Positions 3,280 to 41,066 of a DNA stretch of 41,106 bases are shown in pieces. The notes under the pieces are model-generated. The model searched no databases, was not told the DNA's origin, and was given only the letters and a program-made list of their open reading frames with translations. Source of the DNA: Bacteriovoracaceae bacterium. Lineage in GTDB: Bacteria; Bdellovibrionota; Bacteriovoracia; Bacteriovoracales; Bacteriovoracaceae. The translations under genes were made by a program, and so were the position numbers. Where the stretch lies: assembly GCA_018649885.1 (NCBI GenBank), contig JABIHA010000038.1, positions 1 to 41,106 of the forward strand, read 5' to 3'. Position 1 is the first letter of the stretch, and each line of letters starts with the position of its first letter.

Positions 3280-3372
3280 GGGCCGCCTAGCGAAAATTCC
3301 ATGATCCTAGTGTACAGTAAAATCTGCTCATGATATTTTAATAAATTGTAACTTATGGATTTGAAGGGGATT

Positions 3373-5817: not shown

Positions 5818-5943
5818 CACTCTGCACCTTTAGCTCGACTTATCCGACCTATAAGTTTTCCTAATTTTTCACTGGCCAATTTGGTCACATATAGAACATG
5901 ATTGAGCCATAGGATCTTATACACACAATGGAGAGACCTACTT

Positions 5944-7422
5944 ATGTGCGGTATTCTGGGTATTTTAGGCCAGTCGAATTCAGCCGCTTCTGCATACCGA
6001 GGACTATTCACTTTGCAACACCGCGGTCAAGATGCCGCTGGCATAGTGACGTGGGATGAGCAGGAGTCGCGCTTTCACATCAAAAAAGGTTTGGGGCTTG
6101 TGTCTCAAATTTTTGATGAAAATGTAATCAACTCAACACCGGGAAGAATGTCGCTGGGTCACACCAGATACCCAACTTCTGGTGCCAACCAACTTAGCAA
6201 TGTTCAACCTCTGATGTGCTCAAGACCACATGGTTTGGCCTTGGCCTTTAATGGCAATCTAGTTAATTATCTAGATTTAAGAAGGCGCGTGAGATGCAAA
6301 GGCCAATTTCTTTTTACGGAAAACGACGCCGAAGTGATGCTAGCGCAAATATCTTTATTTATGGAAGAAGAGGCCTTTGCCTTTGATTTTGAAAAAAAAC
6401 TTTCTCACTCTATTAAATCCCTAATGCAAATTGCTAAGGGCGGGTATGCAGGCCTTTTACAAATTGCAGGTAAGGGCATTGCTGCCTTTAGAGACCCATG
6501 GGGCATAAGACCTCTACTATGGGGTGAAAAAACGCTCGCTTCAGGAGAGAAGGAATATCTCTTTTCCAGTGAGTCCTCTACTTTAAAATTTTTAGGATTT
6601 AAAAATATAAAAGATGTTTCCCCGGGTGAGATGATCTACGTAGGGCTCGATGGAACTTTTCATAGTGAAATTCTTGTTAGCAGAAACCACCATTTTTGCA
6701 TGTTTGAGTGGGTCTACTTCTCAAACCCAGATGGAATATTAGAAAACGTAGATATTTATCAAGCCCGAACCAGGCTAGGTGAGGCCCTGGCGAAAACTGT
6801 GGCCCCATATATTAAATCTGGGGAGCTTCGTCCTGACTGTGTCGTTCCGGTTCCTGACTCAGGAAGAATTGCCGCTCAAAGTATGGCCGAAGCGCTTGGC
6901 CTTCCTCTGCGTGAGGCCTTAATCAAAAATAGATACATTCAAAGAAGTTTTATAATGGATGGCCAAGACAAAAGAGAAAAGGCCATCTCTCACAAACTAA
7001 GACCAGTGGAAGGCCAAATTAAAGGCAAGAATCTTCTCTTAGTTGACGACAGCATTGTAAGAGGCTCAACTTCAAAACGAATGGTGACCATGCTTAGAGA
7101 ATGCGGGGCCAACTCGGTCACCCTAGTCTCCTCATGTCCGCCCATTACCCATCCCTGCACATTTGGAATCGACTTTCCTACTAAAGATGAGTTGATTGCT
7201 GGAGATAGGGATAACGATGGTATTACAAAGCTTATAGGTGCAGACAAGGTTATTTACTTGCCACTCATTGAATTATATATGGCGCTGGGAAAAACAAATT
7301 TATGCACTGGATGCTTAACAGGCAAATACCCTTTAAATTGTGATGAGGCCTCCGAATTTGCAGAATGGAGGAACGAACAGAAGGAGCAAAAGCTTGAAAA
7401 TAACATGCCTATTCGGGAGTAA
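5944..7422 (+). CDS. purF: Amidophosphoribosyltransferase
   Basis: N-terminal MCGILG (catalytic Cys), LQHRGQDAAG, GHTRYPT, PRPP motif LLVDDSIVRGST, Fe-S type cysteines; start reset to ATG 5944 with GGAGAG upstream. Confidence 0.97.
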   Translation: MCGILGILGQSNSAASAYRGLFTLQHRGQDAAGIVTWDEQESRFHIKKGLGLVSQIFDENVINSTPGRMSLGHTRYPTSGANQLSNVQPLMCSRPHGLALAFNGNLVNYLDLRRRVRCKGQFLFTENDAEVMLAQISLFMEEEAFAFDFEKKLSHSIKSLMQIAKGGYAGLLQIAGKGIAAFRDPWGIRPLLWGEKTLASGEKEYLFSSESSTLKFLGFKNIKDVSPGEMIYVGLDGTFHSEILVSRNHHFCMFEWVYFSNPDGILENVDIYQARTRLGEALAKTVAPYIKSGELRPDCVVPVPDSGRIAAQSMAEALGLPLREALIKNRYIQRSFIMDGQDKREKAISHKLRPVEGQIKGKNLLLVDDSIVRGSTSKRMVTMLRECGANSVTLVSSCPPITHPCTFGIDFPTKDELIAGDRDNDGITKLIGADKVIYLPLIELYMALGKTNLCTGCLTGKYPLNCDEASEFAEWRNEQKEQKLENNMPIRE

Positions 7423-8179
7423 GACAGACGAAGCACACGCAAACGAGCTTGTTTCTGGTCTCAAACAAAAGGGTCACCACCCTCACCTTCTGTACCTTTC
7501 GGCACATAGAAACCACGAAGAGCTAGACCAGTATATGGAAAGCGCAGAGGACAGCGTTGATTTGTATATCGCAGGTGCGGGACTTGCTGCACACTTACCA
7601 GGAGTCGTAAGCTCAAAAACAGCAATTCCAGTAATAGGTCTTCCACTCGGTGGCGCTTTTTGCGGACTCGACGCTTTTATGTCCATTGCTCAAATGCCTG
7701 GAGGGTTTCCAGTTGTCTCTAGTGGAGTGGGAAATGTAAATGCGATCATCAAACTTACACAAAAAATAGAACAGCTGCAAAACAATGATCAACCAGTACT
7801 GAATATCATCTCTTCTAAAAATGAAAGCTCACCTCAGAAAAAGCTCATTGATAAAACAGTGGAGTTGGCCCAGAAACTGGACCTAAGCTACAAACTTTCA
7901 CATATTTATCAAAGCGAGTGCTTCAACCTTTCTTTCACAGATTTATCTGGAAAAGAGAAGGCCTATGAAAGTGACCTGTGCATTCCCTATCTTGAACAAT
8001 GCAGGGAGCAAACTGCTCTCGATGGTCTCAAGTTTTTAGAAATTGCAGGTGAGTCTGGAATGTATGTAGGAATTAACAATATTAAAAATGCAATTTCATT
8101 TTTTGCATCAATAAATAAAACAATCAGAAATGGACGCTCAGTTCAACTTGGCGATTTGAAAAAAGGGAGAAGACCGTGA
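7394..8179 (+). CDS. purE: N5-CAIR mutase (class I PurE) with C-terminal extension
   Basis: GSKTD, SAHR, AGLAAHLPG, PVIGLP, GLDAFMSIAQMPGG motifs; TTG start at 7394 with AAGGAG at 7381-7386. Confidence 0.92.
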   Translation: MKITCLFGSKTDEAHANELVSGLKQKGHHPHLLYLSAHRNHEELDQYMESAEDSVDLYIAGAGLAAHLPGVVSSKTAIPVIGLPLGGAFCGLDAFMSIAQMPGGFPVVSSGVGNVNAIIKLTQKIEQLQNNDQPVLNIISSKNESSPQKKLIDKTVELAQKLDLSYKLSHIYQSECFNLSFTDLSGKEKAYESDLCIPYLEQCREQTALDGLKFLEIAGESGMYVGINNIKNAISFFASINKTIRNGRSVQLGDLKKGRRP

Positions 8180-9339
8180 AAGACTACGAAAGAGTAATTT
8201 ACGAGGGTTCTGTCAAGACTGTCAGAGGCCTTAAAGGTGGCAGTCCAGTATATTTTGAATTTAGTGATGATTTTTCTGTTTTTGACTGGGGTAAGATGCC
8301 CGATAGTCTGGGCAAAAAAGGAGCTGCTCTAAGCTCTATTGCCCACCAAATGTTTAAGTATTTAAGCGATCCGATAGGTTGGGATGCCTGGATCCGATTA
8401 AATAGAGTGAGTCTACGTGAGATGAAAGTCTCACAAAAGATCATGGACGATCTATCGACTCATGGACAAAGCTCACATTTTCTAGAAATAATTGGTAGTG
8501 AGTTTGGACCCCTTTTAAAAGTTAAAGGTGCTGAAGTAAGAAGACCGAGAAGAGAGTCTCCAGCGAAACCCTATGAGTATGGTAGTGCTGATTTTCCCAT
8601 ATTAAATAGACTGCTCCCTCTCGAAGTAATTTTTAGAACAGGTTGCCCCAAGGGATCAAGTTTATTAAAGAGATCATCAGATCTGCCTTATTTAAAGTCT
8701 ATAGGCCTTACGACTCCACCAAAAGAGGGTGAGAGTTTTGAGTACCCCATTGTTGAATTTTCCACGAAACTTGAAGACAAGGACCGCTACTTAGATAAGG
8801 CCCAGGCAAAGAAAATATCTCACTTAGATGATGATGATTTTTTCCACTTGGAATCTCTTGTTAAGGTCATGGCCTTAAGACTTAAAGACTTCTTCTCCGA
8901 GCTAGGTCTCACACTTTGGGATGGAAAATTTGAATTTTCCTATTCAAAATATCTTGAAAAGCCCGCCTTATTTGTATTAGTTGATTCTATTGGACCAGAC
9001 GAGCTAAGGATTACAAAAGATGGAATCCATCTTTCAAAAGAATACCTTAGGCAGTACTACAAGTTATCCACTTGGTCAGAAAAAATAGCTCAGGCACAAA
9101 GTTTATCTAAAGAGCTTGGACTTCCCTGGCAAAAAGTGATGGAAGACAAATTGATGTGCTCTCCCCCACTTTTAGAAAAAGAAACTAAAAAACTGGCCTC
9201 TCAAATTTATACAGTGCTAGATCAATTAATTACCCAAAAAATCGAGGGCGCCCAAATTGATCCTAAAATTCTGTCCGACTTGGTCCACAAACTCCAAAAA
9301 AATCAATCTAAGTGGTCCAGCATAGAAGGTTTATCGTGA
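8176..9339 (+). CDS. purC: SAICAR synthetase (long form)
   Basis: YEGSVK, FSDDFSVFDWG, PLEVIFR, EFSTK, DGKFEF, DSIGPDELR, SKEYLRQY motifs; position in pur operon. Confidence 0.93.
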   Translation: MKDYERVIYEGSVKTVRGLKGGSPVYFEFSDDFSVFDWGKMPDSLGKKGAALSSIAHQMFKYLSDPIGWDAWIRLNRVSLREMKVSQKIMDDLSTHGQSSHFLEIIGSEFGPLLKVKGAEVRRPRRESPAKPYEYGSADFPILNRLLPLEVIFRTGCPKGSSLLKRSSDLPYLKSIGLTTPPKEGESFEYPIVEFSTKLEDKDRYLDKAQAKKISHLDDDDFFHLESLVKVMALRLKDFFSELGLTLWDGKFEFSYSKYLEKPALFVLVDSIGPDELRITKDGIHLSKEYLRQYYKLSTWSEKIAQAQSLSKELGLPWQKVMEDKLMCSPPLLEKETKKLASQIYTVLDQLITQKIEGAQIDPKILSDLVHKLQKNQSKWSSIEGLS

Positions 9340-10619
9340 AGGTACTGGTCATTGGAAAAGGTGGAAGAGAACATGCAATGGCCTGGAAACTGGCACAGGG
9401 ACCAAGTGTATCTAAAGTATTTGTCGCCCCTGGAAATCCAGGGATGGAAGCAGATCAAAAAATAGAATGTGTAGGAATTGGTGAAACTGATTTTGAAGCT
9501 CTCAGCAAATTTTTCATCGACCATGATATTAGCTATGCGGTAGTAGGAGCTGAAGTTCCTCTCGATAGAGGCATTGTAGATTTTTTCCTATCAAAGAAGC
9601 TACCTATTATAGGTCCTACCAAATTGTCCACTAAGCTTGAAAGCTCAAAAATATATTCAAAACAAACGATGCTAGCTGCAGAAATCCCAACAGCAGAGGC
9701 CCTATTCTTCGACCATCTAAAAGATATTGTTCAGTATATTGGCACTAGTGAATTTGATCCCAAAGGGTGGGTTTTAAAAGCTGATGAATTAGAGGCCGGA
9801 AAAGGCGTCTTTGTAGTCGATACAAAAAAAGAGCTCTTAAATGCTTGTGAATACCTTTTTAATAAACAAGGAAGACGAGTTCTCCTAGAGAAAAGACTGG
9901 TGGGACCTGAAGTATCCTACTTTGCCCTTTGTGACGGCGAAGAGTTCACCATTTTAGGCAATGCTTGTGATTATAAAAGACTCCTTGATCATGGCAAAGG
10001 CCCCAACACTGGTGGCATGGGATCATACTCTCCCGCAGATTGGGTCACTAAGGGCGATGAAAAAACCATTATAGAAAAAGGGTTTAAAGCTCTTTTAAAA
10101 TATCTGGCCGGTAAAGGAACTCCTTTTCATGGCTTCTTATTTCTTGGTGCCATGATTACAAAAACAGGTCCCTATATATTAGAGTACAATGTCAGAATGG
10201 GAGACCCTGAAACCCAAAGTTTAATGCCAAGGATTAAAACAGACCTGGCCACACTATTTCTAGAATACACCCAAAAATCCCCCAGCTGGACCACTACCCC
10301 CATAGAATATCACCCTGGACACGGAGTCCATGTAGTCTTGGCCTCAGCAGGTTACCCAGGAATTGACGGTGAAATAATAAAAGGGGTCAATGTAAGTTTT
10401 GATCCAGTTATCAACCAATGGGAAGAGAATCGAAGCAAGTATTTCGCTGCTGGAGTGGGACTCAATTCACGAGGTGAAATGGTTTCAACAGGTGGACGAG
10501 TAATGGGTCTTACCTCTTTATCACACAATAAGAGTGAGGCCGCGAGGCTCGTTTATCAAAATATCGGCAAGGTTCAATTTGAAGGAGCGCAGTACAGAAA
10601 TGACATCGCACAAAATTAA
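9336..10619 (+). CDS. purD: Phosphoribosylamine-glycine ligase
   Basis: KVLVIGKGGREHA, APGNPG, GPNTGGMGSYSP, EYNVRMGDPETQ; GTG 9336 overlaps the purC stop (GTGA). Confidence 0.96.
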   Translation: MKVLVIGKGGREHAMAWKLAQGPSVSKVFVAPGNPGMEADQKIECVGIGETDFEALSKFFIDHDISYAVVGAEVPLDRGIVDFFLSKKLPIIGPTKLSTKLESSKIYSKQTMLAAEIPTAEALFFDHLKDIVQYIGTSEFDPKGWVLKADELEAGKGVFVVDTKKELLNACEYLFNKQGRRVLLEKRLVGPEVSYFALCDGEEFTILGNACDYKRLLDHGKGPNTGGMGSYSPADWVTKGDEKTIIEKGFKALLKYLAGKGTPFHGFLFLGAMITKTGPYILEYNVRMGDPETQSLMPRIKTDLATLFLEYTQKSPSWTTTPIEYHPGHGVHVVLASAGYPGIDGEIIKGVNVSFDPVINQWEENRSKYFAAGVGLNSRGEMVSTGGRVMGLTSLSHNKSEAARLVYQNIGKVQFEGAQYRNDIAQN

Positions 10620-11247
10620 CCTCGCCATTTTAGCAAGTGGCTCTGGGACCAATCTTTTAAATTTAGTAGAAGTGGCGGAAAGACACAAAGATAGAGTGGA
10701 TGTGAAATGCCTCATTACAGATAAAATGGATGCAGGTTTTCTAGAGCACCCAATTTGCCACGATTATAAAAAAATTGTCGTAGAAAATTCTCCAAAACTT
10801 GGCGATAACCTGGATATTAGAAGAGCAAACCATGAAAAGGCAGTTCTAGAACACCTCTTCAATGAAGAGGTTGAGTGGATTTTACTGGCTGGGTATATGA
10901 GAATCCTAACTCCTAATTTTCTCAACTATTTCTACGATAAAAAATTGGACCAATATAAAATTATCAATATCCATCCCTCACTATTACCTAAATTTAAGGG
11001 TGTTAGAGCGATGGAAAAATCCTTTGCTTCCGGTGATAAATTGGCCGGTATTTCTGTTCACTTTGTTTCACCTGAAGTTGATGGTGGTGAGATCATTCAC
11101 AAAGAAGTCATCCCACGATTTAAGGGTGATAATTATTCAAATTTTTCTAAGCGTGCAAAAAAAGCTGAACATTTCGCTTATAAAAAGGTTTTTCTAGACC
11201 TGATCTATGGTCACGGAAAGTTCGCGCCTATAAGGGACACAATATGA
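10600..11247 (+). CDS. purN: Phosphoribosylglycinamide formyltransferase
   Basis: LASGSGTNL, LAGYMRIL, NIHPSLLPKFKG, SVHFV...DGG; start reset to ATG 10600. Confidence 0.96.
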   Translation: MTSHKINLAILASGSGTNLLNLVEVAERHKDRVDVKCLITDKMDAGFLEHPICHDYKKIVVENSPKLGDNLDIRRANHEKAVLEHLFNEEVEWILLAGYMRILTPNFLNYFYDKKLDQYKIINIHPSLLPKFKGVRAMEKSFASGDKLAGISVHFVSPEVDGGEIIHKEVIPRFKGDNYSNFSKRAKKAEHFAYKKVFLDLIYGHGKFAPIRDTI

Positions 11248-14200
11248 AAAGAATCGAAATCAGTGAAAAAGATCAAATATCTTTTACTCAAGGTACTATT
11301 AAAAGGGCCCACGATTTCTTTGAACTAGAAATAGAGGCAATCGAGAAAAGGCAAATTTACTGGATTGATGCTAGAAACTCAAAGTCAGCTCCAAGTGATA
11401 TTGTTGATCAAATTTCAAAAAATGTTTTATCCCATCCACTTGCAGAAAATACCTACCTTACAAAAGACTATTCAAAGGGCCAGTTTAACTACCTTGTTGA
11501 AGTCAATTTTTTACCTGGAGTGACAGACAATACTGCAGGCGGAGTGGTTGCGGCCACCCATTTGTATTGTGACTTAGATGATATCAAGGCACATACAGGA
11601 ACTCTCTACCTCATAAGATCAACTGCCAAGAAAGAACAAATTGAAAGTTTTGTTAGTCAATCCTTTGCCAACCCACTTCTTCAAAATATTCATATGCACT
11701 GTGAAAGTGATGAAATTGCGGCCTATGCCCCATTTGAGAATTTCCCTGATTTTGAATGCAAAGGCACTGATGAAAAACTCTATGAGCTCACTAATTTAAA
11801 CCAGGATATCGATTCCCTTTATAAACTTTCCCGAGAAAAACTTTGGAATTTCGAAATAGATGAACTCAAATATATTCAGTCATTTTACAAAAAAGAAGAT
11901 ATTTTAAAATCTCGATCAAAACTAGGACTTCCGGCAGAACCTACAGACGTAGAACTGGAAGTGATGGCACAAAGTTGGAGTGAGCACTGCAAACACAAAA
12001 TTTTCGCAGCTGATATTGAATATACTGAAAAGTCAGATAATTCATACCACTCAGTAAGTAATGCCACCATCGGTGGTCTTTTTCCTACTTATATAAAGGG
12101 TGCAACCAATCATCTGATTGAAAAAGAAGGTATTGATTTCACTAGGTCGCTTTTTGTGGACAATGCAGGTGTTGTTAATTTTGATGAAGGCGTGGATCTA
12201 TGTGTAAAAGTTGAAACCCATAACTCCCCTTCTGTGCTCGATCCCTACGGTGGCTCCTTAACAGGAATCCTAGGTGTCAACCGAGATATTTTAGGAACAG
12301 GAATGGGGGCGATCCCACTAGCAAATATTGATGTCTTTTGCTTTGGCAAACCTGAACACGATACCAGGCACTATCCTAAAACTGTAAAATCTACCAAGCA
12401 TATTTTAGAAGGCGTACACAAGGGAATCATTGACGGTGGAAACAAATCGGGAATCCCAACAATTAATGGAAGCTTTTCTTTTCACCGAAATTTTGGATCA
12501 AGACCTTTAATATTTTGCGGAACCATTGGGGCCATGAAACCTGGGGATCACAAAAAGATGATGAACGAAGGCGATAGAGTCTTTATGATCGGAGGCCTTG
12601 TAGGAAAAGACGGCATTCATGGGGCCACATTTAGCTCTAGAGAATTAGATCAAAGCTCCCCTCTTTCGGCAGTTCAAATCGGTGACCCTTTCACCCAAAG
12701 ACTAGTTTGGGATTTTTTAGAAAAGGCCCGCGAGCTCAAACTCTACAGCTCAATCACCGACAATGGTGCCGGTGGATTAAGCTCAAGTGTAGGAGAGATG
12801 GCCTGTGAAACTGGTGGAGCAGTAATCGATTTAAAAAAGGTAGGACTGAAATATCCAGGCCTAGCGCCTTATGAAATTATGATCTCAGAGTCCCAAGAGA
12901 GAATGACTCTTTCTGTACCCTCTGAAAATGTAGATGAATTTGAAAGTCTCGCTCAGTCTTTTGGGGTAGAGCACTGCAATCTTGGTGAATTTAATTCGTC
13001 GGGTCACCTCCATGTATGTTACGGCGATGAGACTGTGGCCTATCTCAACTTATCCTTTCTCCATGAGACACTTCCTAAATTGCAACTTAAGGCCAAGTGG
13101 TCTCCAGGTTGTCTGGGAGAAATAGACTTATCAAACACTGAAACAAAACAGACACCTTCTATTGATGAAGCTCTGCTTGAACTACTCGCTCATCCCAATA
13201 TCTGCTCAAAAGAGAGTTATGTTAGGCAATATGATTTTGAAGTGGGAGGCCTTAGTGCTGTCAAACCCTTTGGTGGAAAGTCTGAAAAAACGGCCAACAA
13301 TAGTGGAGTCATCTGGCTTGGCCCCATGGGTTCAAAAAACCAAAGTGCAGGTGTTTGCCTAGGACATGGAATTACTCATTCCCTTAGCTTTATCGATCCA
13401 TACTTAGCAGGAATCTACGCAGTTGATGAGGCCATGAGAAATATACTTTCCACAGGCGCCGATATCACCAAAGTTTGTATCACTGACAACTTCTGTATGC
13501 CCGATCCCCTGCCGGGAAAATCAAATGTATTGGCCGAAGAAAAATTGGGCTCTCTTGTGAGGTTATGTGAGGGTTTAAAAGATGCCGCCATTGTTTACAA
13601 GGCCCCACTAGTTAGTGGTAAAGATAGTATGAAAAATGACTTTATGGGTGAGTCAAACCAGGGCGAAATGGTAAGGGAGAGCATCCCCCCTACTCTCTTA
13701 GTCACTGCCATGGCCCATGTTAATGATATTGCAAAGACTCTTACATCAGACTTTAAAAATAGCTTTAGCTCCATTTATGCTATCGGAGAGGGTGATACCA
13801 CGCTACTGGGAAGTCACTATCAAAGTCTTTTTCAAGTATCAGATAATAGCATTCCAAAAGTTCCCGATTTAGAGAAAAATTACCAACTCTTCCGAGCTCT
13901 ATCGACGGCCACATCAAAGGCCCTTGTTGAGTCATGCCACGATATTTCAGATGGTGGGCTTCTGGTGACCATTTCAGAATCTATGATTGGTGGAGATTTG
14001 GGAGCTGTCATTGACTTAGATATAAGGATGCATGATTTGCGCTCCACATTTTTCAACGAAAGTCCTGGAAGATTTGTGGTAAGCGTAGCAAATGACCAAG
14101 TCAATGAGTTTGAAAATACCTTTAAAGGTCTGCCAGTTTTAAAAATTGGTCAAACTTCACTTACTCAAAAACTAGTTGTTAATAATAGCGGTAAACTTGT

Positions 14201-32420: not shown

Positions 32421-33563
32421 CTACCTAAATTTTAATATGAGAGAGCCATAAACATCATTTTCTATTGGTAGGCCTTCGGTTTGACCGATCAAATCTCCAC
32501 GCAGTGCCATTCCGGCGCTCAGGGAAAAGTACAAAGTTGTACCCTCTGACAATTTGGCCACCTGAAAGTCTAACCTGGCATGGGTTTCAACCACCCAATA
32601 ATCTAAATCCGTAAGAGAGTAAACAAACCAAATATCAAACATTCCCCACAGATTCTCAAAAAGTTTTACTTTTGAGAGTAGTGGAACTTTTCCTTCGAGC
32701 TTGACTCGATAGGAAAGAATCAGATTGTCATCTTGTGCAGTATCATCAGCGTGAACTATCGTTCGTCTTCCCAGTGCTGCACTTATAGAAACTTCTTCTG
32801 GATTAAAATGCGTTAGGGCATCAAACTCAACTCCCCCAAGCTCAGTAAACTGAAAAGCAACATTTTCATCGAGATCTCTTTTGAGGCTTTCACTTACAAA
32901 TATTGCCCACTTTTGATTTTTAAGTATAACTTTATAGATGATACTTTGGTTAATCTCAGCATCTGCAATTTGAGAAGATCCATCAAACTCAGCGCCTATA
33001 GTGCCAGAAATTGAGTGATCACCCCATCTTTTTGAAAACTTTGTTTTTACTTTGGCATTGAAATCAGATTCAGGTACTTTTTTTCCTGTTAAATTACCAT
33101 CTTCATCCACTTCATCAACCAAAGTGACATCACTGTCAACTGAGGCCTGTAAATCAAAGGTGAAAGGGTTTTGGTCTACCTCAGGAGGGGCTACCGCCAC
33201 AACCATAGGAATTCCCTTAAAGGCCATAATATGCACTCGAATATTATCTCGAAGTTGGATCTCTCCATCCGCATCCACAACCTCCTGGCATAATTCAGTT
33301 TTATATCCCAAAATATAATAGGCCAATGTTTCATAGTCATTATCATGATCAGGAAATCTTTCGGCCATCTCGGTTGTTAACTTATAGACTTTTTGCCAAT
33401 CATCACAATTTGAAATTGAAAGATACTCTGTTCCTGGAGCAGCTTCAGCAATTCTTGAAGTTGATTTCTTATACTGTGATTTGGTTTCTACGAAAGGGCC
33501 TGAAAAGGCAGCTGAAATTTGAAAAACCAATAGTGATAATACTACCAAAACGTAGCTGTTCAT
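32421..33563 (-). CDS. Outer-membrane protein: N-terminal soluble domain plus DUF481-like beta-barrel
   Basis: GAGGAGGA RBS; signal peptide; C-terminal about 240 aa of alternating strands ending YGSLILKFR. Confidence 0.6.
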   Translation of the reverse strand: MNSYVLVVLSLLVFQISAAFSGPFVETKSQYKKSTSRIAEAAPGTEYLSISNCDDWQKVYKLTTEMAERFPDHDNDYETLAYYILGYKTELCQEVVDADGEIQLRDNIRVHIMAFKGIPMVVAVAPPEVDQNPFTFDLQASVDSDVTLVDEVDEDGNLTGKKVPESDFNAKVKTKFSKRWGDHSISGTIGAEFDGSSQIADAEINQSIIYKVILKNQKWAIFVSESLKRDLDENVAFQFTELGGVEFDALTHFNPEEVSISAALGRRTIVHADDTAQDDNLILSYRVKLEGKVPLLSKVKLFENLWGMFDIWFVYSLTDLDYWVVETHARLDFQVAKLSEGTTLYFSLSAGMALRGDLIGQTEGLPIENDVYGSLILKFR

Positions 33564-33859: not shown

Positions 33860-33901
33860 TATTACTTGGGAAGTAAATCACTACCCCGAGAGGAGAATTT
33901 C

Positions 33902-35032
33902 ATGTCAACAAAACTTATTTGTGCTGTTATGGCCTTCACTGTTTGTTCTAGTTTGTTTGCAAAAAGATTTGTCGTTAGAGGTCATGACCTTGAAGCTATA
34001 AAAAATGAGATTAATCATGAGAGGGGAAATCTTCAACACCAATTAAAGAGACATCAGGCCGTTATTGCCAATTTTGATGATGCAACAGCAGGACGGTTAA
34101 GGGCCAAATTTGGCGCCAATATAAAAATCGAAGAGGATATCCTCGTTCACATTAATGCCAAACCACAAAACCCAGGAGGTGGGAAAAAAGGTGGTGGAGA
34201 CACCCCAAGTGCACAACCACCACAAGAAACACCGTGGGGTATTTCACACATTGGGGCCCCTAGTGCTTTTTCAATCACTAGAGGTTACGGAGCCATTGTA
34301 TGCATTGTAGATACTGGAATTGAGGAAAATCATCCCGATCTCGTTGACAATGTTATAGGTGGAGAAAATTTTGTGGTTAAAAAAGGCAGAATCGATCCTC
34401 TAGGGTTTAATGATGACAATGGACACGGTACCCATGTAGCTGGGACAATAGCAGCACTTGATAATGAAATTGGAGTTATAGGTGTTGCACCCAATGCCTC
34501 AATATTTGCTGTTAAAGCACTAGATAAGAGAGGTTCTGGATATACTTCAGCTATCGCTGATGGTGTCACAAGTTGTGTGGCCAATGGTGCCCATGTGATT
34601 AACTTGTCTCTTGGAAGCTCATCAGGTAGTTCTATCTTACACGACGCCATTATTGATGCAGTAAATGCGGGAGTTCATGTGATAGCAGCTGCCGGTAATG
34701 ATGGATCAAATGCAGTCTCCTACCCAGCTGCCTTTGCAGAAACCATTGCAGTTTCTGCCATCGACTCTTCAAATAACTTGGCCTATTTTTCAAACTACGG
34801 ATCACAAATCAATTACGCAGCACCCGGCGTTGGTATTAAATCGACGGTCCCAGGCGGCTCATATGATGTATTTAATGGAACTTCTATGGCCACTCCACAC
34901 GTTGTAGGAGTAGTGGCATTAATGGTTTCTTCAGGAGAGTCCCAACTAGGCTCTACTGATATTGGCCTCACTCCAGATAAACAAGGAAATGGACTTATAA
35001 GCGCAGACCTTACTGTGAACCCTCTCCCATAA
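33902..35032 (+). CDS. Secreted S8 subtilisin-like serine protease
   Basis: Signal peptide, I9-like propeptide, catalytic triad VDTG / HGTHVAG / GTSMATPHV, oxyanion AAGN; ATG 33902 with GAGGAG RBS. Confidence 0.96.
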   Translation: MSTKLICAVMAFTVCSSLFAKRFVVRGHDLEAIKNEINHERGNLQHQLKRHQAVIANFDDATAGRLRAKFGANIKIEEDILVHINAKPQNPGGGKKGGGDTPSAQPPQETPWGISHIGAPSAFSITRGYGAIVCIVDTGIEENHPDLVDNVIGGENFVVKKGRIDPLGFNDDNGHGTHVAGTIAALDNEIGVIGVAPNASIFAVKALDKRGSGYTSAIADGVTSCVANGAHVINLSLGSSSGSSILHDAIIDAVNAGVHVIAAAGNDGSNAVSYPAAFAETIAVSAIDSSNNLAYFSNYGSQINYAAPGVGIKSTVPGGSYDVFNGTSMATPHVVGVVALMVSSGESQLGSTDIGLTPDKQGNGLISADLTVNPLP

Positions 35033-35076: not shown

Positions 35077-35336
35077 AATAATCCTCGTAATATAAATTAA
35101 ATGTAAGAAGTTAGTATTTTTCCACAAACTCATTTCAAACCAGTATTTTTTCCTTAGATAAAAATAAACCAAATAAAATTGGGTAGTTACAGCTCAATTG
35201 GAACTCATTGTTTCAGCAGTCATTCGCGAAGCGTCCAGCAAAAATAAGACTTAACTACTCGGGATGGCCCATCATATAATTTCTCCCTAATTGTGAAACA
35301 AAATGGATTTAAAATAGCTCATGGGAGGGCAACACG

Positions 35337-37535
35337 ATGAAATTCTTATGCATACTAATGCTCACACTCTCTTTTTCGTTGATGGCCGCGGCACCAGATA
35401 TGACCACGCTCAAGACAGCAGGAAGAATTATCCACTCCGAAGTGGCCGGCTTCGCAACTGATCACGCTTGGGAGAAAACCACCAAAGTGATGAAAGATTT
35501 AAAAATCTTTGATGCCCAGGTGAATAGAATGATGCAAATTCTTTGCTCTCCTGAAACCAATAAATCGGTTCTTCTTGTGGGTGAGGCCAATGATACCTAT
35601 AAATATTTCTTTTCTAGACTTGCTATGATGGATCCACTATCTGGATGTACAAAATTTTCTCACGTTGATTTTGAAGTCAGCAAGCTCCAAGGTTATATGT
35701 ACGTGGGCACCACTGAAAAGAAGTGGCAAGACCTCATTGAGAAAACAAGCTATGACAAAGATGTAGTTTTATATTTTAACAACCTGAGAAGATTGATCGG
35801 CATTGGAACAAGCTCTAATAAATCGGTCGGCATTGAATCAACTCTCGCAACAGCGATCGCTAGTGGAAAACTTAAGGTCGCCTCATATATGAACAAATAT
35901 GATTACAATGAATTGATCAGATCACGTCATGCTTACGTCCTCGACGCCTTTCAAGAGGTGATTCAAATCCAAGATATCACTATGGCCCAGGTAGACCTGC
36001 TAGTGGATAAGTACCTTGCTGTTCATGGACCCCACTTAAAGCTTTCTGATGAAACAGCATTTTATATGTATAAGAAAATTGAATATTTTCAGCCCAATAT
36101 TGAAGAGCCACAAAGGACCATGGATATTTTAAGAACAATCATGGACCGCTTTAAAATGAAAAATGAGTATTTTGCCTCCACGGCCAGAACTGATAAGCCT
36201 TATAAGGCCAATGAAAATAAAACTTTTGTCGTAGAAAAAGCAGGAGCCGTTTCATTAAAATTATACTTTGAATACTTTCAAACTGATTATTCAGATACAC
36301 TTACAATTTATGATGGAAACACAGGTACTGTTTTAGATAAATTCCAAGGCAGATTAGGAAAATTTGCTTCTAAAGAATACACCACTAGTAAACTAAAGCT
36401 GGTCTTTAAATCAAATGGGTCTTATCAAGGCGATGGATTTAAAATTGCCAATGTCATGGCCCGTGTACAACCTACAGGTTACGACATTACAAAAGAAGAT
36501 GTCAGAATGGCGATCTTCAAAAGAGTTCAAGTTCCAAGATGGATTATTGATAGAGATTACTCTCTAGTGAGAAACCTTAGAACGCTTCTTGATAAAGATG
36601 TTGTGGGAGTTCTTGAGGGTAAGAAAGCTGTCATTAGATCTGTCAGAATTGGATATGTCAGTGGCAGAACCGATGAAAAGCCAGCAGGAACAATTCTATT
36701 TGTTGGCCCAACTGGTACAGGGAAAAGTTATATCGCCAAAAAAGCTGCCGAGTATATGCAGATGAAAACCATTACCATGGACATGACTCAATATGCGACA
36801 TCAGAAAGTTTTGACCGCTTTGTCACTACAATGTCCAACTACCTTGTACTCTATCCATACGCCGTATACCTATTTGAAGAAATTGATAAGGCCAACCCCA
36901 GAGTTCTCGATCGTCTTTATTTTATGATGGATGAAGGTATTTTTTACGATAAAAACCAAAGGCCTCTATTTGCTAGAGGAGCGATGCTCTACATGACCAC
37001 AAATGCCGGTCACAAATTAATTATCAAAGAAAAGGATAATCCAAAACTTAAAACCTTAGTCCACCAAGAATTGCAAAAATACTATAGACCAAGTTTTTTA
37101 AATCGATTTGATAGCATTCCGATTTTCAAACCTTTCTCTCCAGCAGAGTACAAGCAACTTGCAAAAATCATGGTGACTAAGAAACTTCAAAAATTAAAAG
37201 AGCACTATGACTGGAAACTTGATGTGGACGATGCCACCATGGATTTTATTGCCAAAAATGGTGGAAGTGATCTCTACGGAGCAAGACCTATGGAGAGACT
37301 CATTGACAGCGTTATTGCTATGGGAATTTCAGAGTACCAAATTATGGTTGGAACTATTGCATACGGTGCACAGATTAGTATTTCTAAGCTTGCAAGAGGT
37401 GCTACTGCTTTTAAAGTCAGTGTTAGCGGAAGATCAAGTGTCGAGTTTGAGGTAGACCTGGACAATAATTCAGGACTGCACAGCTACACTGATCCAATCA
37501 TTTTAAGCTTGCTTGCCAGTGTTAAAGTCTTATAA
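35337..37535 (+). CDS. Atypical ClpA/ClpB-family AAA+ ATPase with signal peptide and inserted CUB-like domain
   Basis: NBD2: LFVGPTGTGKS, MDMTQY, LFEEIDKA, MTTNAG, RPSFLNRFD, GARPMER; NBD1-like region degenerate; CUB-like segment at about 36190-36450; GGGAGG RBS. Confidence 0.85.
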   Translation: MKFLCILMLTLSFSLMAAAPDMTTLKTAGRIIHSEVAGFATDHAWEKTTKVMKDLKIFDAQVNRMMQILCSPETNKSVLLVGEANDTYKYFFSRLAMMDPLSGCTKFSHVDFEVSKLQGYMYVGTTEKKWQDLIEKTSYDKDVVLYFNNLRRLIGIGTSSNKSVGIESTLATAIASGKLKVASYMNKYDYNELIRSRHAYVLDAFQEVIQIQDITMAQVDLLVDKYLAVHGPHLKLSDETAFYMYKKIEYFQPNIEEPQRTMDILRTIMDRFKMKNEYFASTARTDKPYKANENKTFVVEKAGAVSLKLYFEYFQTDYSDTLTIYDGNTGTVLDKFQGRLGKFASKEYTTSKLKLVFKSNGSYQGDGFKIANVMARVQPTGYDITKEDVRMAIFKRVQVPRWIIDRDYSLVRNLRTLLDKDVVGVLEGKKAVIRSVRIGYVSGRTDEKPAGTILFVGPTGTGKSYIAKKAAEYMQMKTITMDMTQYATSESFDRFVTTMSNYLVLYPYAVYLFEEIDKANPRVLDRLYFMMDEGIFYDKNQRPLFARGAMLYMTTNAGHKLIIKEKDNPKLKTLVHQELQKYYRPSFLNRFDSIPIFKPFSPAEYKQLAKIMVTKKLQKLKEHYDWKLDVDDATMDFIAKNGGSDLYGARPMERLIDSVIAMGISEYQIMVGTIAYGAQISISKLARGATAFKVSVSGRSSVEFEVDLDNNSGLHSYTDPIILSLLASVKVL

Positions 37536-37593: not shown

Positions 37594-37878
37594 ATGAAAA
37601 AACTGATGATACTACTGCTTCTTTCGGCCTGTGCCTCAAACCCAGGCAAGCTTAGTGACGCCGGCGAAAAAGTTCGCACCCTTCCCAGCTCAAAAAATAC
37701 TGGCTGCAAGGTTGTAGACAAAGTAATTGGCGAGAGTGAGAAAGGCTCAGAAGAGCTTGCCACAAATCACGCTAGGAACTTAACGGCCGATGCCGATGGC
37801 GATGCCATGTATATTGACCAAGTGGTACCCAATGGAGCGATGATGAGAGTTTTCGCCACTGCTTATAAGTGCCGGTAA
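37594..37878 (+). CDS. Small lipoprotein, DUF4156-like
   Basis: ATG 37594 with GGAGAG RBS; lipobox LSAC; GC..V..V.G...A.N.ARN..A..DGD...AYKC pattern. Confidence 0.75.
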   Translation: MKKLMILLLLSACASNPGKLSDAGEKVRTLPSSKNTGCKVVDKVIGESEKGSEELATNHARNLTADADGDAMYIDQVVPNGAMMRVFATAYKCR

Positions 37879-37980: not shown

Positions 37981-38712
37981 ATGAGTGAGAAAAGACTAAC
38001 TAAATCTCAAAGAAAAGAAGAAATTTTAAAGGCCGCCATCCCACTTTTCGCCCAAAAAGGCCTGGGTGCCACAACCAAAGAGTTGGCCTGTAGGGCCTGC
38101 GTCTCAGAAGCATTACTGTACAAACACTTCCCCTCAAAGGCCGCCCTATTCGAGGAAATAAAAAGTAGCTGCTGCAAAAAGGCCAGGGAGAGCGGACATA
38201 TCATCACGGCACTTCCCTCTTCAAGTCAAGTTTTGATCATGGCAATCTACGGTCTTGTTCGCTTTGTTCTTTACGGCGCCACTGGAGATGAGACCCATAA
38301 CAATACCAAAAGAATTTTGGCCCACGGCCTCTTACAAGATAGGCAATTTATTAAAAATTTCTTCGAAACAAATTTTGAAGACTTTATGCCCAAACTTGAA
38401 GACTGCATGAAAGTGGCCATTGAAGCTGGCGAGATGATTGCCCCTTCAGAGAATTTAAAACTCTCCCTCTGGCTGTCACATCACCTTTGCTTTGGAGTTT
38501 CCATCATCATTTTAAACCAAAATGAAGACCTAGAAGTGATTGACTATGGAATAGATCCACAAGGGCTTCAAATTGAGATATCAAAATTTATCATGCGAGG
38601 CCTAGGCCTTAAACAAGAAATCATTGAACAATACTTTATGCCTGAAGAGTTTAACCTTATTTTAGAAAACCCTAGCACTCTTCTGGATTCGATTAAAATG
38701 GAGAATTCATGA
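37981..38712 (+). CDS. TetR/AcrR-family transcriptional regulator
   Basis: RKEEILKAAIPLFAQKG..ATTKELA..ACVSEALLYKHFPSK HTH. Confidence 0.93.
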   Translation: MSEKRLTKSQRKEEILKAAIPLFAQKGLGATTKELACRACVSEALLYKHFPSKAALFEEIKSSCCKKARESGHIITALPSSSQVLIMAIYGLVRFVLYGATGDETHNNTKRILAHGLLQDRQFIKNFFETNFEDFMPKLEDCMKVAIEAGEMIAPSENLKLSLWLSHHLCFGVSIIILNQNEDLEVIDYGIDPQGLQIEISKFIMRGLGLKQEIIEQYFMPEEFNLILENPSTLLDSIKMENS

Positions 38713-41066
38713 AATTAATTAACCGTGCAATCTTTAGCATGACTGGTCTAATTATGAATAGGCCAAAAACCCTACTAGTTATTGGTCTTTTAGGTCTACT
38801 AAGCTTTACCCTTGGCCTGACTAAATTAAAAACAAACTTTAGCTATAGAATATGGTTCAACACTGATTCACAGGCACTTGTGGATTATGATAAATTTGAA
38901 TCAGTATTTGGAAATGACGAAAACTCAGTCCTGGCCTTACACAACCCAAGTGGAGTTTTCAACAAGAAGACGGCGCAACTGATCCAAAATATCACCAATG
39001 ACTTTTGGAAAATCAAAGATGTCATAAGGGTCAACTCACTCAGTAATTTCAACTGGACCCACGGCGAGGATGACGATATTTTGGTGGACCCCTTTTTCCC
39101 GGAGTCCCATGAATTAGATGATCAGTTTCTATCGCAAAGAAAGAAAATTGCTCTATCGCATAAGTCCCTTAGGGGTTACTTCGTTTCAAAAGATGCAAAT
39201 ACCGCACTATTTTACGTCAAGCTCAGACCATTTTTCAAAAAATCACCTGACTATGACAGGCTAATGAAGGACTTAACCGCCGTAGTCAACAAATACAAAC
39301 CAGACCACCAGGAAATGCAGTTTTATTTAACTGGAAGCACCCCCATTAACGCCAGCTTCAAAGAAAGTACAAGAGAAGATATGAAAACTCTTATCCCCTT
39401 AGTGCTTCTAGTGGTCACAACTTTTCTGGCCTTTAGCCTTCGAAACCCACTTGCAGTAGTACTGTCTCTATTTACCATCGGGGTGGCCATCATCTACACC
39501 ATGGGCTCTGGCGGGTATTTAGGACTTGAAATTAATAATCTCTCGGCCACGGTGCCTCAGTTTATGATTGCTATTTCAATCGCTGTGGTGGTCCACCTAC
39601 TTGTCACCTACTACCTTTTTACAGCAAAGGGTTACTCAAAAGATGAGGCCATCAAAAAATCCTTACAAAAAAATATAAAACCGACTCTTCTCACAAGCTT
39701 ATCAACTGCTTTTGGGTTTTTTAGTTTTTCATCCGCTGGGATTCCGGCTATCTCTGAAATGGGCGTTCTAGCCGGAGTGGGAACACTTTTGACATGGATT
39801 GCCACCTACCTTGTAATGGCGCCTTTGATGGTTTTACTCCCCATTGGAAAATGGAAACCCACAAAAGTTAAAAAAGATGAGTCCAGTAGAAGTGAGAAAT
39901 TTGTTAATTTCATCGATCGTAACAAAAAGGGAATTATTGCCATAACCATATTAATGGCCATCTTGGATATCTCTTTGGCAGTAAAAGTTGCAGTGAATTC
40001 CGACCCACTAGAATATTTTGACAAAAAATTTCCAGTCTCTATTGCCAATGATTTTATGGAAGCTAATGTTGGTGGATCTATGAGTATTGAAACTGTGGTC
40101 GATTCAGGCTCTTCTGAGGGTATAAAAGACCCAGACTTTTTGGCAAAGGTTGAGAGTCTGCAACATTGGCTTGATCAAAACTCATTTGTCTCAAAAACTA
40201 TCTCCATTGTGGATATACTAAAAGACACCAACAAATCATTAAATGGCGGTGATCAAAATTTCTACCGATTGCCCACTGAGAGAAAACAAGTTGCCGAGCA
40301 ACTCTTTTTATATTCCATGGGTCTTCCCCAAGGAATGGATATTAGCAATCAAATGACCATTGGAAATGACAAAATGAGAGTCACGGCGATGGTGACCATC
40401 CACGACTCCATGAGAATTCTTAAATTTGCTGATGAGATTGAAAATAAGGCAACTGAGCTAGGACTTAGTGCCAAGGTCAATGGGAAGAACTATCTATGGC
40501 AAACCATTACAGGTCCCATTATAAAGTCCTTTGGTAAGTCTCTTACTTGGGCGATAGCTCTAATTAGTTTGCTCTTGATCTTTGGCCTGGGCTCGGTAAA
40601 ACTGGGGCTTCTAGCAATGATCCCCAATACACTCCCTATAATATTTGGAGGTGGGGCCTTATTTGTATTGGGTAAATATCTCGATATAGGTACTGTGATC
40701 GTAGCGGCCATTACCCTAGGAATAGCTGTTGACGACACCATTCACTTTCTCAATCACTTTAAAAATGCCTTAATTGAGGGGAAATCTCCAAAAGAAGCGA
40801 TCACCGAAATATTCTCCCAAACGGCCATGGCACTTATAGTGACAACGTTAGTGCTAGTGGCATCTTTTGGAACTTTCTATTTTGGCACCTTTGTTCCCAA
40901 TCAAAACTTCGGAATTATGGTGGCGATTATTTTAACTTTTGCTCTGATTTGTGATTTAATTTTCCTGCCAGCTCTACTTCTTTGTTTAAAAAGAGAATTT
41001 TTCATTGAAAAAGAAATCTATCAGGTTTCATGCCCGACTGAGAAGATTAAAAATGCGTACACTTAG
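38709..41066 (+). CDS. MMPL/RND-family transporter (paralogue of 26576-28897)
   Basis: Same 2x(1+5 TM) topology; RIWF, FGNDE, GLPQGMD, GIAVDDTIHF; ATGA overlap with tetR. Confidence 0.92.
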   Translation: MKLINRAIFSMTGLIMNRPKTLLVIGLLGLLSFTLGLTKLKTNFSYRIWFNTDSQALVDYDKFESVFGNDENSVLALHNPSGVFNKKTAQLIQNITNDFWKIKDVIRVNSLSNFNWTHGEDDDILVDPFFPESHELDDQFLSQRKKIALSHKSLRGYFVSKDANTALFYVKLRPFFKKSPDYDRLMKDLTAVVNKYKPDHQEMQFYLTGSTPINASFKESTREDMKTLIPLVLLVVTTFLAFSLRNPLAVVLSLFTIGVAIIYTMGSGGYLGLEINNLSATVPQFMIAISIAVVVHLLVTYYLFTAKGYSKDEAIKKSLQKNIKPTLLTSLSTAFGFFSFSSAGIPAISEMGVLAGVGTLLTWIATYLVMAPLMVLLPIGKWKPTKVKKDESSRSEKFVNFIDRNKKGIIAITILMAILDISLAVKVAVNSDPLEYFDKKFPVSIANDFMEANVGGSMSIETVVDSGSSEGIKDPDFLAKVESLQHWLDQNSFVSKTISIVDILKDTNKSLNGGDQNFYRLPTERKQVAEQLFLYSMGLPQGMDISNQMTIGNDKMRVTAMVTIHDSMRILKFADEIENKATELGLSAKVNGKNYLWQTITGPIIKSFGKSLTWAIALISLLLIFGLGSVKLGLLAMIPNTLPIIFGGGALFVLGKYLDIGTVIVAAITLGIAVDDTIHFLNHFKNALIEGKSPKEAITEIFSQTAMALIVTTLVLVASFGTFYFGTFVPNQNFGIMVAIILTFALICDLIFLPALLLCLKREFFIEKEIYQVSCPTEKIKNAYT

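Follow-up and report, generated by a model that had tools for sequence, protein, structure and literature searches.

A CUB domain very probably occupies the M-domain site of an exported Clp/Hsp100-like protein from Bdellovibrionota

Can the site at which Clp/Hsp100 proteins carry their regulatory coiled coil accommodate a receptor-type folded domain, and what would such a domain do there? The question is raised by a 732-residue Clp-like protein encoded on contig JABIHA010000038.1 of Bacteriovoracaceae bacterium (Bdellovibrionota; assembly GCA_018649885.1), positions 1 to 41,106 of which are the stretch of DNA analyzed here and referred to as the window. A preliminary description of its sequence had recognized a CUB-like segment between NBD1 and NBD2 (the first and second nucleotide-binding domains), at the position of the middle domain (M-domain) of ClpB and ClpC, and had taken it as support for export of the protein. 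So far, the module known to be inserted in the NBD1 lid is a coiled coil that communicates with Hsp70 or MecA, and Hsp100/Clp proteins are regulated through this insert. If a receptor-type folded domain took its place, the site would prove to be a socket of general use, open to modules for regulation or targeting. The results presented below make it very likely, close to certain, that an exported Clp-like protein carries a CUB domain where the M-domain would be.

All peptides quoted in the preliminary description are present in the translation of the open reading frame (ORF; residues encoded by 35337–37532), and the interval 36190–36452 that it had assigned to the CUB-like domain corresponds to residues 285–372. 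When the whole protein was compared to Pfam, residues 273–370 matched positions 6–108 of the 110-position CUB profile (PF00431) with an E value of 2.9e-5 and a score of 24.8 bits, above the curated cut-off of 21.4 bits; the excised segment scored 29.2 bits (E 1.2e-6). The domain was thus placed correctly, whereas its width had been set too narrow, the real span being approximately residues 273–378.

A set of 54 proteins related to the window protein was recovered at E ≤ 1e-158. They are 40 to 61% identical, and the next match, at 1e-35, is an ordinary ClpA/ClpB. We aligned 23 CUB segments of this family, namely, those of the window protein and of 22 loci, cut by locus coordinates; the segment of locus L019 was omitted. 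Pfam recognized 21 of the 23 segments individually as CUB, with a best E value of 7.6e-11. The profile built from the alignment found cubilin among PDB sequences at an E value of 2.3e-27 summed over four CUB repeats (2.3e-6 for the best single repeat), as well as PCPE-1, enteropeptidase, neuropilin-1 and -2, C1r, C1s, MASP-1, -2, and -3, Kremen, and TSG-6. Designed WD40 proteins (Tako8 and Ika) and FBXW7 that appeared in the same search were rejected as spurious, as they represent summed sub-threshold repeats or contain no passing stretch. Among 1.84 billion representative proteins, the CUB profile matched 8921 at E ≤ 0.001; with limits of 1e-10 and 1e-30, the number fell to 2905 and 420, respectively. 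Long multi-CUB proteins head the list, which confirms the superfamily and indicated no donor of the insert.

An AlphaFold model of the segment, based on the 23-segment alignment, is all-beta [predicted local distance difference test score (pLDDT) of 91.0; predicted template modeling score (pTM) of 0.82]. Foldseek, the comparison proposed in the preliminary description, returned 58 matches in the PDB at E ≤ 1e-3, led by CUB domains of Kremen (6.9e-6), MAp19, C1s (CUB1), neuropilin-2, and PCPE-1, with TMq values of ~0.55 to 0.64 and root mean square deviations (rmsd) of 3.7 to 5 over 104 to 124 columns. The sole non-CUB structure among the matches listed was 3afg, a Thermococcus subtilisin jelly-roll, at rank 29. 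The identification as CUB is therefore upheld by Pfam, by the family profile, and by superposition on solved CUB domains, and the segment is not a part of the AAA lid. Typical CUB domains contain two disulfides formed by four cysteines, a feature that is not universal. The translation of residues 273–378 contains no cysteines, so this pattern is absent from the window copy.

The position of the insert was determined from the full-length model (pLDDT 91.1, pTM 0.76; 47-sequence alignment) and from alignments to ClpB. In the model, lid helices at residues 216–230, 238–251, and 259–271 are followed by the CUB strands (275–377, the first at 275–280 and the last at 367–377), a strand at 382–384, a helix at 386–397, and NBD2. 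Alignment of the family to a ClpB from the list of relatives using hhalign (probability 99.87) paired residues 59–668 with ClpB residues 182–826. The lid peptide QPNIEEPQRTMDIL of the preliminary description was paired with ClpB 'nrflpdkaidlm', and the linker 'ITKEDV..VP' was paired with 'vtyedia..ip'. Over longer stretches, YFQPNIEEPQRTMDIL corresponds to 'ryitnrflpdkaidlm' and DITKEDVRMAIFKRVQVP to 'evtyediaevvakwtgip', with ClpB residues ~403–530 lying opposite the CUB stretch. The same brackets were obtained with phmmer against Thermus thermophilus ClpB (1qvr), where residues 59–242 aligned to 176–362 and residues 382–683 aligned to 519–838. The return segment ITKEDVRMAIFKRVQVPRW that leads into NBD2 was aligned to 'evtyediaevvakwtgipvt' of ClpB by hhalign and to residues 519–540 of 1qvr by phmmer. 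The model and hhalign thus bear out an insertion, as proposed, between the lid of NBD1 and the helix into NBD2. No coiled-coil M-domain is present, since residues 273–378 are all beta-strand and score as CUB.

The stretch at the insert site is 121 to 136 residues long in 22 of the 24 loci examined. Only 21 residues are present in the L020 protein, where the lid is connected to the linker helix by ~14 residues, and P0053 is a second family member without a CUB domain. The existence of such naturally CUB-less members confirms that the CUB domain is a discrete insert. Instead of the coiled-coil M-domain of ClpB and ClpC, ClpA has a short lid-linker connection at this place, and the connection in L020 is ClpA-like. 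The L020 gene (5911–7821), which comes from a bin labeled Limisphaerales (maybe mislabeled), retains a signal-like N terminus. At L019 (6607–7146), 180 residues occupy the site, representing either an enlarged domain or an extra piece.

The body into which the CUB domain is inserted is that of a Clp/Hsp100 protein. Using VIA-align, the full model was superposed on Escherichia coli ClpB (4ciu) with a Z score of 27.9 (rmsd 10.2, 561 aligned residues, model 23–697 to chain 159–858) and on ClpA (7uiy) with a Z score of 27.4 (rmsd 8.6, 553 aligned residues, model 24–699 to chain 169–749); Z scores for ClpC and Hsp104 were ~26 to 28. Tandem AAA+ modules with the Clp fold are thus evident from both VIA-align and hhalign. 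Since the alignment begins at ClpB chain residue 159, the mature protein starts at the beginning of the Clp NBD1, and no match to Clp_N (PF02861) was found at E ≤ 1 when the 732-residue protein was searched against Pfam. The place of the N-domain is taken by a predicted Sec-type signal peptide. Scores for the NCBIfam equivalogs of ClpA (TIGR02639, 150.5 bits) and ClpB (TIGR03346, 140.8 bits) were below their cut-offs of 993.15 and 1232.1 bits, respectively, and both matches were confined to NBD2.

NBD1 has lost both Walker motifs: phmmer placed 'GEANDTYKY' opposite ClpB 'GEPGVGKTAI' and 'LYFNNL' opposite 'LFIDEL'. The loss is family-wide, as the consensus at these sites reads 'VGEPSDTYxY' and 'VVLYFxxL'. 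A pore-loop-like K..G..YVG stretch is retained, with 'MYVG' opposite ClpB 'KYRG'. Within it, G124 is invariant and Y122 and V123 are nearly invariant in 47 sequences. Judged by these motifs, NBD1 is a degenerate pseudo-ATPase in which a pore-loop tyrosine motif survives. In NBD2, the Walker B motif has Glu-Glu for Asp-Glu in every family member, sensor-1 is TTN (residues 554–556), R584 and R590 are invariant in the Arg-finger region, and in sensor-2 G648, R650, and P651 are invariant and A649 is nearly so. Walker A, Walker B, sensor-1, Arg-finger, and sensor-2 columns that are invariant or nearly invariant among proteins only 40 to 60% identical suggest selection on the motor. The GYVG pore loop of NBD2 is replaced by a 12-residue gap opposite ClpB 'gappgyvgydeg', so pore-loop tyrosines are not present in both rings. 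Downstream of the ClpB match, the C-terminal extension is modeled with strands at 691–696 and 701–705 and a helix at 720–728 (residues 712–718 have pLDDT < 50) and is alignable across the family.

The preliminary description had considered that the CUB domain supports export, and the N termini of the family are consistent with this. Signal-peptide-like N termini were found in 38 of 47 family members and in none of 66 cytosolic Clp controls, as counted by a crude home-made rule rather than a dedicated predictor. Truncation, an upstream start, or a near miss of the thresholds accounts for the nine members that failed the rule. All full-length members have a basic start, a hydrophobic core, a small-x-small site, and then a conserved Pro-Asp-Leu; three contain a lipobox-like Cys. 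In the window copy, Ala19 is followed at position +1 by Pro, which makes the precise bond of cleavage uncertain. The invariant Cys70 and Cys104 of NBD1, which are absent from the CUB-less L020 protein, fit a possible disulfide. The subtilases of the same genome that carry CUB domains, considered below, bear signal peptides as well.

Outside Bdellovibrionota, the family is almost absent. The 24 family loci carry the labels Halobacteriovorax, Halobacteriovoraceae, Bdellovibrionales, Bdellovibrio, Pseudobdellovibrio, Pseudobdellovibrionaceae, Oligoflexales, Bacteriovoracia, and Bdellovibrionota; a few are broadly labeled Proteobacteria, Pseudomonadota, or uncultured bacterium, and two bins labeled Sulfitobacter and Limisphaerales are maybe mis-binned. 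Of the 301 genomes (170 genera) in an even sample of the phylum, 9 genomes from 7 genera contain the family, the window genome included. Database names for these proteins are only 'AAA family ATPase' or 'ClpA'. Ordinary Clp-type genes are present elsewhere in the window genome, so the window gene is an extra one. No paper on an exported Clp protein with a CUB domain was found by a full-text literature search that left most subscription journals outside.

What the CUB domain might bind was considered from its calcium-site signature. The position of Tyr289 is Tyr in 44 of 47 family sequences and that of Asp320 is Asp in 44 of 47; the position of Asp317 is Glu in 35 and Asp in 2 of 47, and that of Asn360 is Asp in 31 and Asn in 9 of 47. 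The family signature is therefore Tyr/Glu/Asp/Asp, while the window copy has Tyr/Asp/Asp/Asn. In the profile alignment, the family columns line up with acidic residues of the cubilin CUB repeats (E, D, and D). We take these columns to be equivalents of Tyr17, Glu45, Asp53, and Asp98 of C1s, an assignment that derives in part from the cubilin alignment. In C1s CUB1, a ligand lysine touches Glu45, Asp98, and Ser100, and Asp53 is essential to the calcium site, according to passages of a published study (PMC4222235). Tandem CUB structures are likewise described, in part of another report, as having a ligand site formed by Ca2+-binding loops (PMC8051872).

The same CUB subtype occurs in secreted proteases of the window genome. 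When the whole genome (5.45 Mb, 151 contigs) was searched for Pfam CUB domains, three matches were obtained: the window protein and two near-identical 531-residue, signal-peptide-bearing S8 subtilases with a C-terminal CUB domain. The subtilase CUB is 33% identical to the window CUB over 91 residues (E 4e-9), bears the full Tyr/Glu/Asp/Asp pattern, and shares the 'HPY...YD.L.I...SD.S...GFKI' subtype. Since this subtype is common to the secreted subtilases of the genome, it is probably a targeting module shared within the lineage's exported proteome. A subtilase of Bdellovibrio bacteriovorus with a CUB domain was noted in 2008, and the relevant passage states 'role in prokaryotes not clear' (PMC2605481). 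The genome also encodes a paralogue of the window protein on contig C17, with a CUB score of 24.6 bits, whose likely start is further in than that of the 777-residue frame, at a lipobox-like 'ISISC'.

Taken as a whole, our results favor, with a probability of about 0.55, an exported ring-type Clp/Hsp100 relative that uses its CUB domain as a docking arm. The protein would assemble into a ring, with the CUB domain on the outer rim of the upper ring, projecting as the M-domain does. The acidic and probably calcium-holding CUB loops would grip a basic residue of a partner, which could be a substrate or client, an adaptor, or a component of the envelope. In this way, the CUB domain would bring clients to the machine and possibly couple their binding to the NBD2 motor. 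A published account describes the M-domain as a coiled-coil insert with a regulatory function, binding Hsp70 or MecA and repressing the ATPase (PMC5699869). It is the repressing, adaptor-binding role of the ClpB/ClpC M-domain that we extend to the CUB domain by analogy; the odds that the domain has a docking or regulatory role are about even. The preferred reading is that a partner or substrate would dock at the M-domain site. Of the interpretation in the preliminary description, in which an extracellular ligand-binding module replaces the M-domain and may gate the ATPase or recruit substrate, the structural half is supported and the functional half is plausible.

Several observations weigh against this reading. 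Two of the four signature residues are changed in the window copy (Asp for Glu and Asn for Asp), making Ca2+ binding uncertain here. At least two family members (L020 and P0053) persist without a CUB domain, and mean column identity is lower for the CUB domain (42%, 23 segments) than for the whole protein (47%, 47 sequences). Because the canonical pore loop of NBD2 is absent, ordinary substrate threading cannot be assumed. The source of ATP is the weakest point of the explanation: in the textbook view, the periplasm has no ATP. A TLC-type transporter was considered as a family-wide ATP supplier and rejected, as it is present in 59 of 301 genomes, namely, in 4 of 9 that bear the family and 55 of 292 others.

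The docking-arm reading can be compared to known systems. ClpB/Hsp104 and ClpC have the same insertion point (from a 'LPDKAID'-type lid helix to the helix into NBD2) and the same tandem AAA+ body (Z ~26 to 28); in contrast to them, the window protein has a CUB beta-sandwich instead of a coiled coil, lacks NBD1 Walker A and B, Clp_N, and the NBD2 GYVG, and bears a predicted signal peptide. ClpA, the best NCBIfam match, differs in that the window protein has no N-domain and a degenerate NBD1. An [IL]G[FL] tripeptide for ClpP docking, which we would presumably expect after sensor-1, was not seen there on direct reading of the window protein. Ca2+-binding CUB domains (C1r/C1s, MASPs, cubilin, PCPE-1, and neuropilins) match in profile and fold, and most family members keep Tyr/Glu/Asp/Asp; unlike C1r/C1s-type domains, the one described here is in a bacterial host, lies as a single domain inside an ATPase, and has no cysteines, and its window copy reads Tyr/Asp/Asp/Asn. 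Bdellovibrio-like secreted subtilases share the CUB subtype, but there it is a terminal appendage of a protease, whereas the window CUB is internal to an AAA+ protein.

Torsins are a further point of comparison: they are AAA+ proteins of the endoplasmic reticulum lumen that belong to the Clp D2 clade, have a signal peptide and a single active D2-type module, and are not known to have canonical pore-loop aromatics or an arginine finger. The window protein resembles them in its predicted signal peptide, its single active D2-type module, and its lack of canonical pore-loop aromatics. Torsin-1A from the PDB matched it at an E value of 1.2e-4, and the Torsin family profile (PF06309) matched residues 412–486 at 20.4 bits, below the cut-off of 27. 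Unlike in Torsins, R584 and R590 are invariant in the window family; Torsins have no NBD1 module and no CUB domain.

A broader proposal, which we consider tentative and doubtful, is that some Bdellovibrionota have an ATP-driven Hsp100-type machine outside the cytoplasm, with the CUB domain serving as its client- or adaptor-docking arm. The machine would be a secreted ring with a live NBD2 motor and a gripping NBD1 pseudo-ring, seated on a dedicated membrane protein of ~212 residues, and would obtain ATP via a nucleotide transporter or from leaking prey. It might correspond, in bacteria, to the Plasmodium HSP101-EXP2 translocon, or it might unfold proteins in the periplasm and pass them on to the proteases that the predator secretes. 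The Plasmodium HSP101/ClpB2 of PTEX is, according to part of a published report, an Hsp100 that acts beyond its own cytoplasm, docked on a membrane pore (PMC7355975), and PDB chains of HSP101 matched NBD2 of the window protein at an E value of 2e-21. The likeness is that the bacterial family travels with a conserved membrane protein, as judged from gene neighborhood; the difference is that both NBDs of HSP101 are still active and that it retains an N-domain together with a middle domain formed by a coiled coil.

The ORF encoding the ~212-residue protein lies directly upstream of the Clp-like gene, on the same strand, in 14 of 21 loci. The protein has four to five hydrophobic segments and, in an alignment that holds 13 of the 14 loci, invariant Trp, Asn-Thr, Gln-Ser, Phe-Asp, and Gln-Asp motifs. 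No Pfam family was found for the 13 of 14 proteins scanned, and an Atlas search for the protein found nothing above 0.79 (features) or a TM of 0.41 (structure). Nine of 301 genomes contain it; eight of them also carry the Clp family, with adjacent genes in six, and related genomes among these are not independent. Its only homologue in the window genome lies at a distance from the window gene, on contig C140. There, it belongs to a same-strand cluster that also encodes two further signal-peptide Clp-type AAA+ ATPases, one of 907 residues and one of 792 residues in which GYVG and both NBDs are intact. Other products of the cluster are an RCC1-repeat protein, a protein of the TLC ATP/ADP-transporter type (PF03219, E 9.3e-16), and two secreted proteins, namely, a VWA protein and a trypsin-like protease. 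By its gene content, this cluster looks like a second, larger exported-AAA+ system. The window genome contains four signal-peptide Clp-type ATPases, and these, two of which are clustered with the membrane protein, VWA protein, protease, and TLC-type protein, support the proposal of an extracytoplasmic machine.

The design is an unstudied one, and it hints at ATP-driven protein handling outside the cytoplasm in a marine predatory-type bacterium. Its interest lies in the combination of export, a pseudo-NBD1, a CUB domain at the M-domain site, a membrane partner, and predatory bacteria: a putatively secreted AAA+ protein with fully conserved ATP-handling residues in NBD2, and with a linked membrane protein, is found in a bacterial predator phylum and would reside in a compartment that textbooks hold to be free of ATP. 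If active outside the cytoplasm, the protein would bear on energy-dependent unfolding or translocation in the periplasm or in prey and on how predators dismantle folded prey proteins.

Other roles for the CUB domain have to be weighed against docking of a partner. It may instead be an element of assembly or self-regulation that contacts neighboring subunits, a second ring, or its own ATPase and holds a rest state, comparable to the M-domain belt of ClpB, the head-to-head contacts of ClpC, or the CUB1-2 latency lock of ADAMTS13. The M-domain, which occupies the same site, represses through contacts between subunits, as passages of PMC5699869 describe, and part of PMC8051872 presents CUB domains that can be calcium-free intramolecular latency locks; the weakened calcium signature of the window copy would also fit. 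However, most family members keep the ligand-gripping Tyr/Glu/Asp/Asp, which is needless for pure packing, and the same subtype is C-terminal in secreted subtilases, where ring assembly makes no sense. We therefore regard this alternative as unlikely.

Alternatively, the CUB domain could be a localization tag that attaches the protein to an envelope component, either of its own cell or of prey, without affecting the motor, and its task would be the same as in the subtilases. The subtype is common to the two secreted S8 proteases of the genome, the B. bacteriovorus subtilase mentioned above (PMC2605481) has a CUB domain as well, and the CUB-less members imply that the core machine works without this domain. 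Tags are usually terminal, as in the subtilases, whereas here the domain lies inside the Hsp100 regulatory-insert site and is kept there in 22 of 24 loci. The tag also overlaps with the docking-arm reading, the sole difference being whether the motor senses binding or not. As a separate explanation, it appears improbable to us.

Retention of the protein, with the N-terminal hydrophobic stretch acting as a membrane anchor and both ATPase and CUB domain in the cytoplasm, would solve the ATP problem. Pro at +1 is disfavored by signal peptidase, and its presence after Ala-Ala-Ala argues against cleavage at that bond. Nevertheless, the N termini of the family, in which a basic start and a hydrophobic core precede small-x-small and an acidic Pro-Asp, are patterned like those of translocated proteins, three members have a lipobox-like Cys, two cysteines are invariant, and the other CUB proteins of the genome are proteases with signal peptides, which leaves retention very little room. 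Finally, it is highly improbable that the insert is a functionless relic of domain shuffling, for although it is dispensable in L020 and P0053 and slightly less conserved than other parts of the protein, members that are only 40 to 60% identical and come from loci labeled with several Bdellovibrionota orders keep it at one site, Pfam still recognizes 21 of 23 segments, its signature residues are near-invariant, and its fold is confidently predicted.

The coordinates of the features described above and of neighboring genes are given in Table 1.

Table 1. Features of the Clp-like gene with its CUB insert, of its surroundings in the window, and of related genes elsewhere. Coordinates without a locus name refer to the window.
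Feature	Coordinates	Strand	Residues or details	Basis
Peptidase_S8 subtilase	33866..35032	+	388 residues, hydrophobic N terminus	Pfam PF00082, E 7.1e-51
Shine-Dalgarno-like GGGAGGG	35323..35329	+	7 nt 5′ of ATG	Sequence reading
Whole ORF (P0001), putative exported Clp/Hsp100-like protein with CUB insert	35337..37535	+	732 residues	ORF list, translation
Predicted Sec-type signal peptide	35337..35393	+	1–19 (Lys2, hydrophobic core, Ala-Ala-Ala, then Pro-Asp)	Direct reading
Degenerate NBD1-like AAA+ module and lid	35511..36152	+	59–272	phmmer against 1qvr, i-E 0.035; hhalign
Cys pair in NBD1	35544-35546; 35646-35648	+	C70; C104	Invariant in 47 sequences
CUB domain	36153..36470	+	273–378, cysteine-free	Pfam, family profile, model, Foldseek
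CUB calcium-site positions	36201-36203; 36285-36287; 36294-36296; 36414-36416	+	Y289; D317; D320; N360	
Return strand and helix into NBD2	36471..36545	+	379–403	Model
NBD2 large domain	36546..37136	+	404–600	Pfam AAA_2 448–594, E 8.5e-22; ClpB alignment
NBD2 Walker A	36705-36728	+	GPTGTGKS	
NBD2 Walker B	36870-36887	+	LFEEID	
D2-small domain	37137..37385	+	601–683, sensor-2 GARP 648–651	Pfam ClpB_D2-small 603–679, E 1.2e-10
C-terminal extension	37386..37532	+	684–732, beyond ClpB match	Model
Membrane protein of ~212 residues	L001:5338-5982		Equivalents in 13 other loci	
Same-strand cluster on contig C140	L051 (G000:C140:14000-27500)		ORFs 2468-5191, 5212-6027, 6078-8456, 8458-9222, 9234-9875, 9856-11292, 11231-12664	
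Near-identical secreted S8 subtilases with C-terminal CUB	L048:184-1779 (G000:C34); L047:375-1970 (G000:C117)		531 residues	
Paralogue of the window protein	L049:5874-8204 (G000:C17)		777-residue frame	CUB 24.6 bits
Peptidase_S8 gene	L049:8222-9502		15 bp downstream of the C17 paralogue	

The Clp-like gene is separated from the subtilase gene upstream by an AT-rich spacer of 304 bp. Both family copies in the window genome adjoin a subtilase gene, which is upstream in the window and downstream on contig C17. No S8 gene was present among up to two flanking ORFs per side in the 20 other loci scanned, and when ORFs of the window were compared to the 24 loci by BLAST, only the Clp-like gene was shared. 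Since it is the only gene common to the loci, the S8 neighbor is not conserved. Genes of trypsin-family serine proteases were observed near the Clp-like gene at L010 (3403–4521) and L017 (8392–9210); with the S8 neighbors counted, proteases recur near Clp-like genes, inconsistently. Genes with an HNH endonuclease domain (278 to 369 residues) were seen within a few genes of the Clp-like gene at L001 (8318–9151), L010 (10107–11213), and L049 (3703–4569) and could be there by chance, predator genomes being rich in nucleases.

Nearly identical copies of the window gene are present in marine metagenome runs from several studies. One metatranscriptome run contained three 151-nt contigs identical to the window, of which two lie within the Clp-like gene and none over the CUB domain. 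These RNA contigs are a weak hint of transcription, with DNA carry-over being possible.

The region is flanked by genes for a 380-residue protein with a hydrophobic N terminus (32421–33563, − strand) and for a small protein with a lipoprotein-like start ('LLLSAC'; 37597–37878, + strand), neither of which has a Pfam family. Further downstream on the + strand, a 243-residue ORF (37981–38712) overlaps a 785-residue ORF (38709–41066) with many hydrophobic stretches. Judged by eye, these two ORFs look like a regulator/membrane-exporter pair.

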